This document shows positions 4,102 through 24,279 of a stretch of DNA of 24,279 bases, in pieces; positions within the stretch are counted from its first letter, which is position 1; the number at the start of each line of letters is the position of its first letter. The stretch is taken from IMG/VR virus record IMGVR_UViG_3300045988_060429; one strand, written 5' to 3'. This stretch comes from a virus. Lineage: Duplodnaviria; Heunggongvirae; Uroviricota; Caudoviricetes. The translations under genes were made by a program, and so were the position numbers. The notes under the pieces were generated by a model, which searched no databases, was not told the DNA's origin, and saw nothing but the letters and a program-made list of their open reading frames with translations.

Positions 4102-4178
4102 TGGCGTGGCATGCAGGATTCGAACCTGCGACCAACCGCTTAGAAGGCGGTTGCTCTGTCCAACTGAGCTAATGCCAC
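4102..4178 (-). tRNA. tRNA-Arg, anticodon UCU (argU-like)
   Basis: Reverse complement folds by hand into a cloverleaf: acceptor GTGGCAT / ATGCCAC, D-stem GCTC / GAGC, anticodon stem ACCGC / GCGGT with loop CTTCTAA (U33, anticodon TCT, A37), T-arm GCAGG-TTCGAAT-CCTGC, discriminator G and encoded CCA. Confidence 0.85.
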
Positions 4179-4500: not shown

Positions 4501-4515
4501 TTACCTGAAAGGTAA
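4501..4515. promoter_or_regulatory. dyad TTACC-TGAAA-GGTAA upstream of the portal operon
   Basis: Exact 15-mer, identical to the copy at 23269-23283. The shared block extends to TTACCTGAAAGGTAATA, and CATATGTGGTT follows in both places. Confidence 0.5.
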
Positions 4516-21840: not shown

Positions 21841-21855
21841 TTACCCTTGAGGTAA
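21841..21855. promoter_or_regulatory. dyad TTACC-CTTGA-GGTAA in the leader of the 210-aa gene
   Basis: Exact half-sites. It lies immediately downstream of the candidate -10 element of that gene. Confidence 0.45.
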
Positions 21856-21927: not shown

Positions 21928-22620
21928 TCAGAAGAACCCTGCCTTGTCGTTGATGTATTCCGCGTGGGTCTGGATATCACGCAGGCATTTACTCACACCG
22001 ACGATGTAGCAGAACATGGTGGTCACCTCCGCCGCCGCGCCCGATACGTCGTGCCCGTCTTCCTGTAACTGGTTCAGCAGATTCATCAGCAGTGAGTTCT
22101 CCGTCAGGCCGAGAACACCAGACGGCGAATGAATCAGGCTGCGGTAGCCGGGCTTCAGTGGGGCGCTGTAGGTTTTGTTCTCTATCTTCATCGCCTGCAT
22201 TACTGCTGACGCCGTGGCGTTGGCTACCTGGTCGGCAACCATCTTTATGCGTTCTTCCTGCGGGAGCGAGTTTTTAATGTAACTTCCGGTGCGGCGGATC
22301 TGAGGAAGAACCTCACCTGTAACCCATTCAAGAAATCTGAATGCTCTCGTTCCCTCAGTCATTGCCTCTTTGCAACGCAGAATAAGGATGTAGAGACCTG
22401 ATTCTGAAACGATGGATAGTTCTTGTATTCCACCAGGGGTCTGTATTGAATACAGCCCCTTTTTGTTCCAGCCTTTTTTATCAAGTTTTCTCGCTTGTGT
22501 AACATCAATATTCAAAGCATTGCACACATCTTTGGTGACAAACCAAGGTTCTCCGTCAATCATGAACATACGGATCTGGCAGGATGACTCAAAGGAAAAG
22601 ATGGAAGGTTTGGTATTCAT
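21928..22620 (-). CDS. Bro-N domain protein (antirepressor-like), about 230 aa
   Basis: FSFESSCQIRMFMIDGEPWFVTKDVCNALNI...SESGLYILILRCKEAMTEGTRAFRFLEWVTGEVLPQIRRTGSY is a clear Bro-N signature. Start moved to the ATG at 22620 (AAGGTG upstream); the track's 22665 start has no SD. Confidence 0.75.
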   Translation of the reverse strand: MNTKPSIFSFESSCQIRMFMIDGEPWFVTKDVCNALNIDVTQARKLDKKGWNKKGLYSIQTPGGIQELSIVSESGLYILILRCKEAMTEGTRAFRFLEWVTGEVLPQIRRTGSYIKNSLPQEERIKMVADQVANATASAVMQAMKIENKTYSAPLKPGYRSLIHSPSGVLGLTENSLLMNLLNQLQEDGHDVSGAAAEVTTMFCYIVGVSKCLRDIQTHAEYINDKAGFF

Positions 22621-22887
22621 GGCGATCACCTTTGTAGTTAGGTTAATCACCACCGCTGAGACCAATCAGATGGTGGTGAACTGTGCAGAGTTGGTCTTAC
22701 CGGCTACAAAGGAACCCGGCGCACCTTTCGGTGCCCCCACACAGCCCACCATAGAATAGGTGCGCTTTACACATAAAAAAACCGCTTATGCGGCATATGT
22801 GCCTCTGTAGTAATCCGGGAGACCAATCCCGGCACTGGATTTTGCCAGTGCCCGATTACTATGGCACAAGAGGAGTGCGATGTAAAT

Positions 22888-22902
22888 TTACCGCAAAGGT
22901 AA
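22888..22902. promoter_or_regulatory. dyad TTACC-GCAAA-GGTAA in the intergenic region between the small paralog gene and the Bro-N gene
   Basis: Exact half-sites, inside a stem-loop-rich non-coding stretch. Confidence 0.45.
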
Positions 22903-22933
22903 ATATAAGCACTCCATTTGGTAATTTCAAACC

Positions 22934-23191
22934 TTATCTGGTTTGTTTTCGTAATTGTTCGGCACAATAGTCGAGATGTGTTTGCAGATCCTGCATAGAC
23001 ATCTGTGAGCTGGTGACGTAGTTAATCAGTGCAGTCAGTTCGGCAAGTGGGCCATCGACATTAAATCCATCCTTATCGAGATCCCGGAGTAATTTCATCA
23101 AGTGCGATCCCTCCACCAGTGACCTGACGCCTCCCGGCGTGTGAATCCTTTCGGTAAATCCCTCTTCCAGTGGATAGTGATACTGCTGCAT
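22934..23191 (-). CDS. small protein paralogous to the C-terminal domain of the Bro-N protein; candidate SOS-controlled antirepressor
   Basis: By-eye alignment with the Bro-N C-terminus gives roughly 35-40% identity (shared P-GV, L-E-S-LM-LL, DG--V-G, QTH--Y). Start ATG at 23191 sits 9 nt after GGAG. A LexA box lies 22-37 nt upstream. Confidence 0.6.
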   Translation of the reverse strand: MQQYHYPLEEGFTERIHTPGGVRSLVEGSHLMKLLRDLDKDGFNVDGPLAELTALINYVTSSQMSMQDLQTHLDYCAEQLRKQTR

Positions 23192-23211
23192 CTTAATCTT
23201 CTCCATGCAAT

Positions 23212-23231
23212 AACTGTATATTTATACAGTA
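23212..23231. promoter_or_regulatory. LexA (SOS) box AACTGTATATTTATACAGTA
   Basis: Core CTGT-ATATTTAT-ACAG at 23214-23229 fits the E. coli consensus CTGT-N8-ACAG with an AT-rich centre. Confidence 0.65.
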
Positions 23232-23268
23232 GCAAATAATTTGTTTGCTATCCAGCACGTTTTGCAAA

Positions 23269-23283
23269 TTACCTGAAAGGTAA
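23269..23283. promoter_or_regulatory. dyad TTACC-TGAAA-GGTAA in the divergent region between the small paralog gene and the tailspike
   Basis: Identical 17-mer to the copy at 4501-4517, followed by CATATGTGGTT at 23313-23323 (compare 4557-4567). Confidence 0.5.
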
Positions 23284-23387
23284 TATCTATTCGTATTCAC
23301 AGTCTTTTTATCCATATGTGGTTTTTCAGGTAATAGAATAACCAGATATGCGGCGCAACGGGTGCTGCGACTATCTGGAGATTTAAC

Positions 23388-24279
23388 ATGACGGTCTCAA
23401 CCGAAGTTGACCACAACGAATACACCGGTAACGGCGCTACGACATCATTTCCGTATACCTTCCGTATTTTCAAAAAATCCGACCTGGTTGTTCAGGTGTC
23501 TGACCTGAACGGGAACGTAACAGAATTGGTTCTGGATACCGGTTATACGGTAACTGGGGCGGGCACTTATAGTGGCGGTTCAGTGGTTCTTCCGTCTCCG
23601 CTTGCTGCTGGCTGGCGAATTACGATAGATCGTGTGCTTGATGTGGTGCAGGAGACAGACCTTCGCAATCAGGGGAAATTTTTCCCCGAAGTGCATGAAG
23701 ATGCCTTTGACTACCTGACGATGCTGATCCAGCAATGTTTTGGGTGGTTCAGACGCGCATTGATGAAACCATCTTTGCTTGCAAAATATTACGATGCAAA
23801 GCAAAACAAAATTTCTAACCTTGCAGATCCATCACTTGAGCAGGATGCTGTAAATAATCGCTCAATGCGTAATTATGTCGATGCTGCAATCGCCGGGGTT
23901 GTTGGTGGTTTTGGTTGGTTTATTCAGTATGGTTCAGGCGCGGTATATAGAACGTTTCAGGATAAGATGCGGGATAACGTTAACGCTCTTGATTTTGTTC
24001 CGTTTGAGCAAAGATATGCTGCATTAAATTTTGAAGTTGATGCGTCTGAATGGTTAATTAATGCGATAAATTCTGGTGCAAGTGTCGTTAGAATACCTGC
24101 AGGTAAATGGATGATTTCTAAGAACATAGATGTGCCTCCTGGAGTGTCTTTAATTGGTGATGGCATTGATTATTGGGATACATATAGACCAGCGCCTGAA
24201 AGATTATTAAAAAGTTGGAGTAAAGGAACCCATCTTGTATTTACTGGTGATGGAGAAAAAAACAAATATTTTTTTAACA
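23388..24279 (+). CDS. tailspike/tail fibre, N-terminal part (runs off the window end)
   Basis: ATG 7 nt after GGAG, open with no stop to the window end (297 codons). The N-terminus MTVSTEVDHNEYTGNGATTSFPYTFRIFKKSDLVVQV resembles the conserved particle-binding N-terminus of epsilon15/phiV10-type tailspikes (memory). From about residue 190 the sequence turns AT-rich. Confidence 0.7.
   Translation, partial: MTVSTEVDHNEYTGNGATTSFPYTFRIFKKSDLVVQVSDLNGNVTELVLDTGYTVTGAGTYSGGSVVLPSPLAAGWRITIDRVLDVVQETDLRNQGKFFPEVHEDAFDYLTMLIQQCFGWFRRALMKPSLLAKYYDAKQNKISNLADPSLEQDAVNNRSMRNYVDAAIAGVVGGFGWFIQYGSGAVYRTFQDKMRDNVNALDFVPFEQRYAALNFEVDASEWLINAINSGASVVRIPAGKWMISKNIDVPPGVSLIGDGIDYWDTYRPAPERLLKSWSKGTHLVFTGDGEKNKYFFN

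Follow-up and report, generated by a model that had tools for sequence, protein, structure and literature searches.

IsrK and C4 small RNA genes ahead of the Bro-N antirepressor gene in a phiV10/epsilon15-like prophage

The window analysed here, the whole 24,279-nt stretch of IMG/VR record IMGVR_UViG_3300045988_060429, is by sequence comparison a phiV10/epsilon15-like (Uetakevirus) prophage. The region of interest is a 268-bp non-coding gap between two minus-strand genes, the Bro-N antirepressor gene ant (21928-22620) and a gene for a 90-aa protein (22934-23206). The absence of a credible open reading frame, proposed in a preliminary description of this DNA, agrees with the finding that all ORFs lying wholly inside the gap are of 66 aa or less. 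The 230-aa Ant protein is recognized by Pfam Bro-N (1.7e-13) and by the PHROG 'anti-repressor Ant', and its gene starts at the ATG at 22620 rather than at an upstream TTG. It is 80% identical to ORF4 of phage ZX5, whose overexpression leads to less lysogeny and to prophage titres that are down about 1000-fold (PMC9782041). The 90-aa protein is a free-standing protein paralogous to the C-terminal domain of Ant (41% identity across 78 aa, E 1e-20; phrog_450); its gene lies outside the RNA module described below and is context only. Pfam searches with the 90-aa, 210-aa and 152-aa neighbours returned nothing usable, and PHROGs placed them in families of unknown function only. No homologs of Arc or Mnt were seen next to ant.

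The sequence is widespread. Over 1.5 kb around the region, identity is 98% to phage EC.W1-9 and 92-95% to ZX5, TL-2011b and phiV10. Of 5426 complete E. coli genomes, 467 contain the 361-bp core, and matches at lower identity extend to 225 phage records, Stx phages, Gifsy-1, SfV, APSE and an Actinobacillus phage among them. In eight genomes among the matches listed, the RefSeq features under the core match are solely 'hypothetical protein' and 'BRO-N domain-containing protein'.

Scanned against Rfam at gathering thresholds, the window gave two full-length matches, both on the minus strand, like the two flanking genes. The first is IsrK (RF01394; 22851..22775, model positions 1-77), with 74.7 bits (gathering score 50), and the second is the C4 antisense RNA (RF01695; 22756..22669, model positions 1-87), with 78.6 bits (gathering score 45) and an E-value of 4e-14; E-values for both families are of the order of 1e-14. 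A further scan of positions 22500-23400 on both strands, with all 4227 families and E<=1, added c4-a1b1 (RF03163, 'a1, b1 targets of C4 antisense RNA', of the same clan as C4) at 22864..22812 on the minus strand (39.9 bits, E 1.8e-8, missing the gathering score of 46.7 bits) and, beyond these three, no other family. Six of 17 relatives do pass the c4-a1b1 gathering score, over the 5' half of isrK, as does phage P1. The P1 leader scores 51 bits with c4-a1b1 and a sub-threshold 35 bits with isrK, the latter match including a terminator-like hairpin with a U-run, and we therefore equate isrK with the a1/b1 leader of the P1 c4 operon. Some phage records have protein CDSs drawn over the RNAs, including over C4. 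Hfq binding appears here in the name of the RF01394 family only.

All five stem-loops listed in the preliminary description could be located in the sequence, and several of them are now seen as parts of these two RNAs. IsrK opens with hairpin 1 (CACTGG/CCAGTG; 22851..22832, minus) and hairpin 2 (CCGGGA/TCCCGG; 22831..22816, minus), which displays the pairing segment a1, and it ends in a predicted intrinsic terminator, GCCGC-AUAA-GCGGU followed by U7 (22794..22775, the hairpin itself 22794..22781, minus). In C4, a 17-bp closing stem surrounds two internal hairpins, the first of which is the GGCGCACC/GGTGCCCC stem, and the minimum free energy (MFE) fold is the same as the consensus. The closing stem, the second hairpin of C4 with its segment b', and the terminator had been overlooked. 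C4 starts only 18 nt past the terminator, too close for it to have its own promoter. Both RNAs bear the marks of conserved structure, as the covariation check across relatives that had been proposed brings out: compensatory changes occur at 9 of the 27 consensus pairs of C4 (14 sequences), and 7 of the 17 isrK pairs are changed on both sides with pairing kept. The fold z-scores are -4.5 for C4 and -2.8 for isrK.

The 3' strand of C4, UCACCACC, can also pair with a conserved downstream element, GGUGGUGA, in the CACCACC/GGTGGTG helix (22647..22679, minus). The resulting hairpin displays a second pairing segment, a2, in its inner loop. Its outer stem carries compensatory changes in the Actinobacillus phage and in P1, and its inner stems are variable among relatives (CUGA/UCAG, CCGA/UCGG, GCGA/UCGC, ACGA/UCGU, GAAA/UUUC). 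For the 252-nt readthrough RNA from isrK to ant the fold z-score is -4.8.

Upstream of isrK, a promoter scan identified a promoter-like site on the minus strand at 22858..22886, with a -35 box TTTACA (22886..22881), a 17-nt spacer ending in TG and a -10 box CATAGT (22863..22858). The predicted start, G22851, is the first base of the isrK match, and the site corresponds in position to the Gifsy-1 isrK promoter (TTGACA-17-TATATT), which drives the operon of that phage (PMC4825925). A second promoter-like site with weaker support (TTGAAA-17-TATATT; 22902..22930, minus) would start inside the putative operator. This operator is the TTACC dyad of the preliminary description, found as TTACC-N5-GGTAA at 22888-22902, 1 nt from the isrK -35 box. 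The motif occurs at 6 sites in the window, where 0.28 are expected, and at 14 sites in phiV10 against 0.58 expected; the phiV10 dyads lie around the putative repressor gene p40 (31953, 32015, 32727, 32775 and 33112) and before other operons. In Uetakevirus relatives and in Klebsiella phage ST512-KPC3phi13.3, its half-sites are conserved around a 5-nt spacer that varies, a pattern typical of a protein-binding site. Judged by the distribution of sites in phiV10, the dyad is probably the operator of the prophage's main repressor, which would place the ant operon under direct repressor control, as in P1. It is also the centre of an extended palindrome with outer arms GGAGTGC and GCACTCC (22873..22915), upstream of the isrK start, that is perfect over 41 nt in phiV10 and whose outer arms are not conserved in phage Tyrion or the Klebsiella phage.

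The repeat described earlier, GAGACCAATC, reads GAUUGGUCUC on the RNA strand. One copy lies at 22658-22667, as first given, and the second at 22819-22828, so that the original placement at 22817-22826 was off by 2; the inverted near-copy TTGGTCTT, which reads AAGACCAA on the RNA strand, is at 22691-22698 as described. One copy of the repeat occupies the loop of isrK hairpin 2, the other follows C4 by 3 nt, and the near-copy is in the single-stranded junction of C4. The two copies are a1 (UUGGUCU, 22826..22820) and a2 (UUGGUCU, 22665..22659) of the P1 c4 system and the near-copy is a' (AGACCAA, 22697..22691), all on the minus strand; the repeat is the docking site with which C4 pairs, and repeat and near-copy together form the functional core of the region. 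A second set of pairing segments, also on the minus strand, had gone unnoticed: b' (CCUUUGUAG, 22712..22704) in the loop of C4 hairpin 2, b1 (CUACAGAGG, 22810..22802) in isrK, and b2 (CUACAAAGG, 22637..22629), which overlaps the ant Shine-Dalgarno sequence AAGGUGA (22632..22626) and ends 8 nt before the AUG. In the window, a' is complementary to a1 and to a2 at 7 of 7 positions, and b' is complementary to b2 at 9 of 9 and to b1 at 9 of 9 with one G-U pair counted. The ant gene directly follows C4, its AUG being 49 nt past the C4 end, and no icd-like gene lies between C4 and ant in the window. Taken by itself the 10-mer repeat is not significant, as 40 of 100 shuffles gave at least two matches at no more than one mismatch. 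This shuffle test is uninformative, and the significance of the repeat comes instead from its covariation among relatives.

We compared the window with 17 fetched phage loci, making a set of 18 sequences. Conservation of the stems and repeats in relatives, which the preliminary description had proposed to look for, is extensive: the tandem module is kept in 17 of 17 loci, each with isrK and then C4 on one strand, about 20-27 nt apart, followed by an ant, Bro-N or Rha-type gene, and the pairing segments are at homologous positions. The 18 sequences contain 13 distinct a'/b' combinations, or specificity types. The a' variants are AGACCAA, ACGCCAA, GUCUCAA (APSE-1) and GUGCUAA (Actinobacillus), and at the homologous position a1 is in each case the exact 7-nt complement of a'; the same holds for a2, SfV excepted. 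The b' segment is much more variable, examples being CCUUUGUAG, CCUUUUAG, UCGGUGAU, CCUUGUUAG, CUCUUGCGA, CCUUUUUC, UUGAGUAG, CCGUAUGCG, CCUUGAUCA, CCGAUAACG and UUCCGUAC, and b1 and b2 track it throughout.

The specificity of this pairing was assessed with 12 non-redundant types, using position-restricted windows in which Watson-Crick runs and duplex energies were computed. An earlier metric, the longest run with G-U pairs allowed over whole 75-80-nt targets, was too noisy, with non-cognate runs of up to 9, and was replaced. The mean Watson-Crick run of cognate combinations is 8.3 nt for b':b2 and 7.0 nt for b':b1, compared with 4.2 and 3.7 nt for non-cognate ones. By duplex energy, each of the 12 C4 RNAs ranks its own IsrK and its own leader first of 12; the mean energies are -22.0 kcal/mol with the own IsrK and -21.1 kcal/mol with the own leader, against -14.5 and -15.1 kcal/mol for non-cognate partners. 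In a permutation test on this 12-type subset, none of 20,000 permutations reached the observed sum (P<5e-5). RNA-RNA pairing is the sole explanation for three separate sites that evolve in concert in this way.

The region is thus an ordinary copy of a known module, in which the IsrK and C4 small RNAs precede an antirepressor gene, and very probably it serves as the control region for an immI antirepressor operon of the P1 type in this phiV10/epsilon15-like prophage. With the P1 and Gifsy-1 experiments as a guide to transcription, processing and the direction of regulation, we suggest that minus-strand transcription would begin near 22851, at a promoter whose -35 box abuts the putative repressor operator at 22888-22902, and that in the lysogen the repressor would hold the isrK promoter low. 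Most transcripts would end at the intrinsic terminator to give a 77-nt IsrK carrying a1 and b1, and those that read through would contain C4 and then the ant mRNA. C4 would be excised from this precursor, possibly by RNase P as in P1, and its a' (AGACCAA) and b' (CCUUUGUAG) segments would pair with a2 and b2 of the ant leader. Because b2 overlaps the Shine-Dalgarno sequence, the b'-b2 pairing would mask it and block ant translation. The a1 and b1 segments of IsrK may act as decoys for the same C4 segments, either locking the long transcript in cis or titrating C4 in trans, and IsrK could in this way set the threshold for release of the antirepressor. In P1, C4 is reportedly cut out by RNase P and represses ant synthesis, and its pairing is also said to cause premature transcription termination (Rho-dependent polarity). 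The net sign of regulation that we infer for the present phage follows by analogy with these systems. Since the icd gene of P1 and the AUGA overlap of Gifsy-1 are both missing here, neither published mechanism transfers in full.

The most serious alternative is the logic worked out for Gifsy-1, according to which the mRNA would be locked in cis by pairing of a1/b1 with a'/b', IsrK would act in trans as an activator, translation of a small ORF would be required, and C4 would not be a free repressor. In Gifsy-1, IsrK is formed by termination and a fraction of transcription reads through into orf45-anrP, and a stable RNA from the orf45 region (STnc1160) requires the isrK promoter. With IsrK supplied in trans, anrP translation goes up 139-fold, and a helix that joins IsrK to the orf45 region is proved by the compensatory mutants G28A/C162U and G31A/C159U; IsrK there activates translation of the antirepressor, and the C4 part was not shown to repress it (PMC4825925). 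STnc1160 is the C4 region of Gifsy-1, and by our count along the Gifsy-1 sequence G28 and G31 fall in a1 (UUGGCGU) and C159 and C162 in a' (ACGCCAA), so that the helix tested there is a1:a'.

These genetics lend support to a Gifsy-1-type switch in the window, as does the MFE fold of the 252-nt readthrough RNA, which contains the cis helix of a1/b1 with a'/b'. Both also speak for the P1-type module favoured above. The AUG at the C4 5' end, which corresponds to the first AUG of orf45 (A107), is moreover kept in 18 of 18 sequences. In the window, however, the ORF that begins at this AUG, the counterpart of orf45, has 28 codons (22666..22752, minus). Direct masking of the Shine-Dalgarno sequence fits better than coupling of the Gifsy-1 kind, both because this ORF stops 45 nt short of the start codon of ant and because its length in relatives is 15-45 codons, or it continues into the next gene, with an overlap of the downstream start solely in Gifsy-1. 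Its counterparts in Tyrion, APSE-1 and the Klebsiella phage have 15 codons and end inside C4. The 45-nt distance in the window and these early ends make termination-reinitiation coupling unlikely. The ant gene also has its own Shine-Dalgarno sequence, which b' complements exactly, b2 covaries with b', and the geometry equals that of P1, whose C4 is a free repressor RNA. We regard the Gifsy-1 logic as unlikely for this phage.

A more far-reaching variant of the masking model is conceivable, and we attach still less probability to it. In epsilon15/phiV10-like phages, the c4 module might have been simplified to a direct Shine-Dalgarno-masking switch, with neither icd nor a coupled ORF, and have gained a further layer in the 90-aa Ant C-terminal paralog, whose promoter has the same dyad and which would modulate Ant. 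If so, the paralog could be, for example, a partner resembling P1 Ant2 or a dominant-negative decoy, and repressor, RNA and paralog would make up a three-tier circuit, so far undescribed.

It is very improbable that the conserved sequence encodes small proteins, of the 'Ash family' or like orf45, rather than RNAs. The 28-aa translation matches Pfam Phage_ASH below threshold (22.5 bits, with a cut-off of 26), CDSs are annotated over C4 in some phage records, and Gifsy-1 orf45 is translated (PMC4825925). Against this, the ORF varies among relatives in the manner described above, and C4 lengths, which range from 84 to 88 nt with the gaps in the b' loop, differ by numbers that are not multiples of 3. 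Conservation of the translation is limited to the first 13 or so residues, which overlie RNA stems, and the substitutions in the stems are compensatory. On the strength of the variable ORF length and the sub-threshold Phage_ASH match, we rejected a protein-coding reading of the C4 region.

Equally doubtful is a function at the level of DNA only, with repressor operators and a palindrome and no role for RNA. It would account for the strong over-representation of TTACC-N5-GGTAA and its location at promoters, and for the GGAGTGC palindrome upstream of the predicted start. The region contains a single dyad, however, and its other 190 nt or so fit two RNA covariance models with compensatory changes; the covariation that ties together three separate sites is not something that DNA-binding sites would explain.

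Scarcely credible, finally, is the cis-antisense mechanism implied by the analogy with P22 sar in the preliminary description, with a sar-like plus-strand RNA across the ant start. In its favour, ant does lie just upstream of the tailspike gene, and the plus strand has a weak promoter-like site at 22535-22563. We rejected it because the Rfam scan of 22500-23400 at E<=1 yielded zero sar matches on either strand and no plus-strand match to any family. It is the minus strand that carries the Rfam matches, the predicted promoter and terminator and the covarying stems, and the pairing segments are short, dispersed and duplicated, as expected for trans pairing and not for a full-length overlap. The broader suggestion made there, of a small RNA or operators controlling Bro-N, is supported, with two Rfam RNA families and an operator-like dyad present.

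These results have modest implications. The intergenic region merits annotation as isrK and C4 RNA genes together with their targets. No new biology is implied. The system is known: each RNA belongs to a curated family, published accounts cover this arrangement in P1/P7, Gifsy-1 and APSE, and E. coli prophages commonly carry nearly the same sequence. What is modestly new is the occurrence of two a'/b' types among Uetakeviruses, the absence of the icd and coupled-ORF features, and the presence of the 90-aa Ant C-terminal paralog next door.

Among the systems with which this module can be compared, the P22 immI region (mnt, arc, ant, sar) resembles it in position: in each case a short-tailed temperate phage carries an antirepressor module immediately ahead of its tailspike gene. 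In P22 the module is held off in the lysogen and ant translation is blocked by a small RNA, as would be the case in the window. P22 sar is a cis-antisense RNA read from the strand opposite to ant and spanning its ribosome binding site, whereas the RNAs in the window share the strand of ant and lie upstream of the gene. The CI RNA of P4 (seqA/seqC) is likewise a processed RNA that pairs with complementary sites up- and downstream of itself, although it terminates transcription of replication genes and does not control an antirepressor. SeqA was called a structural homolog of IsrK by the Gifsy-1 authors (PMC4825925).

The APSE phages of Hamiltonella are closer: they too are temperate and short-tailed, and they carry the same tandem RNAs ahead of a Bro-N antirepressor gene. 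Their c4, isrK and BRO-N gene reportedly occur together, and a'/b' match the region upstream of BRO-N (PMC7313666). They differ from the window in a' (GUCUCAA) and b' (CCUUGUUAG), and in having DNA polymerase and endonuclease genes as neighbours in place of tailspike. The Salmonella phage Gifsy-1, with isrK-orf45(STnc1160)-anrP, shares the tandem of isrK and C4 ahead of an antirepressor-like gene. In contrast to the window, where the corresponding ORF stops 45 nt upstream, its C4-started ORF overlaps the anrP start (AUGA) and couples translation; its b' is UCGGUGAU rather than CCUUUGUAG, and its module adjoins the antQ late-control region of a lambdoid phage.

The nearest parallel is the immI operon of P1 and P7, in which the order of operator on promoter (putative in the window), a1, b1, terminator-like hairpin, C4, a2, b2 and gene is the same and the C4 fold is identical in type. 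In the P1 GenBank record, the C1 operator Oc4 lies over the -35 box of promoter P2c4, a second promoter being P1c4, and is followed by a1 (48255-61), b1 (48269-76), the c4 RNA (48343-48419), a2 (48423-29), b2 (48452-59) and icd, which starts at 48470, and then by ant1/ant2. The distances agree closely: from the C4 end to a2 there are 3 nt in the window and 3 nt in P1, from a2 to b2 21 and 22 nt, and from b2 to the start codon 8 and 10 nt. The differences are that the target in the window is the Bro-N ant gene itself, with no icd and no nested Ant1/Ant2 pair, that its leader gives a full isrK match and has a strong U7 terminator where P1 isrK reaches only 35 bits, that its putative operator is TTACC-N5-GGTAA whereas P1 C1 binds an asymmetric 17-mer, and that the phage is a short-tailed Uetakevirus and P1-like phages are myoviruses with a plasmid prophage. 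In P1 and P7, the a'/b' loops set specificity and are the basis of heteroimmunity (PMC12197685). The window has a' AGACCAA and b' CCUUUGUAG, and phiV10, ZX5 and TL-2011b have a' ACGCCAA and b' CCUUUUAG; these differing types predict that similar E. coli prophages carry two forms of antirepressor control that do not cross-react, in the manner of P1 and P7.

In the closing stem of C4, the 3' strand has a possible alternative partner in a conserved downstream GGUGGUGA (window 22647-22679 (-)), and the resulting hairpin displays a2, a C4 pairing target in the ant leader, in an inner loop. The isrK hairpin that displays a1 is its mirror counterpart. We compared the a2 hairpin at the same place in the fetched phage loci carrying an isrK-C4 tandem (L001-L017) and in P1 (L019 48407-48440). 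The outer stem shows a compensatory change in an Actinobacillus phage (UCGCCACC/GGUGGCGA) and in P1 too, and the inner stems differ from locus to locus. Within the unprocessed transcript, this hairpin would be a competitor of the C4 fold.

Comparison of ant (21928-22620 (-)) with ORF4 of phage ZX5 (L002 809-1504) places a mosaic boundary within the gene. Because the C-terminal ~115 residues of Ant differ from ZX5 ORF4 at one position, whereas the Bro-N N-terminal part diverges, as do the a' and b' loops of C4 upstream, the determinants of RNA specificity seem, from sequence comparison, to have been swapped together with the 5' part of ant as a single unit.

Several phage records carry CDSs named 'Ash family protein', 'Rha protein' or 'immunity region' that span C4 and isrK (L002 1510-1623; L007 1237-1920; L011 899-2047; L012 1211-2047). 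The translation of C4 in the window (22669-22752 (-)) gives a sub-threshold match to Pfam Phage_ASH, and the reading frame set by the C4 AUG runs on without a stop into the downstream gene in SfV, 2H10, PhiR47_1 and Hafnia yong2. The CDSs drawn across C4 and isrK are probably protein annotations placed on RNA genes. In the eight listed RefSeq E. coli genomes (H80-H87), the match to the 361-bp core coincides only with 'hypothetical protein' and 'BRO-N domain-containing protein', with no ncRNA feature listed, even though isrK and C4 both score above their Rfam gathering thresholds.

Other RNA genes occur in the window and its relatives. A tRNA-Arg(UCU) gene lies within the phage morphogenesis region of the window (4102-4178 (-)), and Gifsy-1 likewise has a tRNA-Arg (L003 492-570) close to its own isrK. 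Downstream of the ant gene, Rfam identifies sRNA-Xcc1 in the Stx2a phage Stx2_EH0787 (L013 883-966 (-)) and isrJ and isrI in Gifsy-1 (L003 805-879 and 212-309); none of these three is found in the window.

Upstream of ant, the 90-aa gene at 22934-23206 (-), which belongs to phrog_450 (PHROG label: unknown function), encodes a protein that aligns at 41% identity over 78 aa (E 1e-20) with the Ant C-terminal domain; this free-standing paralog could be an Ant partner or modulator. Its promoter region also contains the dyad TTACC-N5-GGTAA (23269-23283), which is strongly enriched in the window, with 6 sites against 0.28 expected (the others at 1356-1370, 1374-1388, 4501-4515, 21841-21855 and 22888-22902). 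In phiV10 (L018) there are 14 sites against 0.58 expected, five of them clustered around the putative repressor gene p40. The sites mostly lie upstream of operons. Judged by motif distribution, they look like a scattered-operator regulon of the main repressor, resembling the arrangement in P1.
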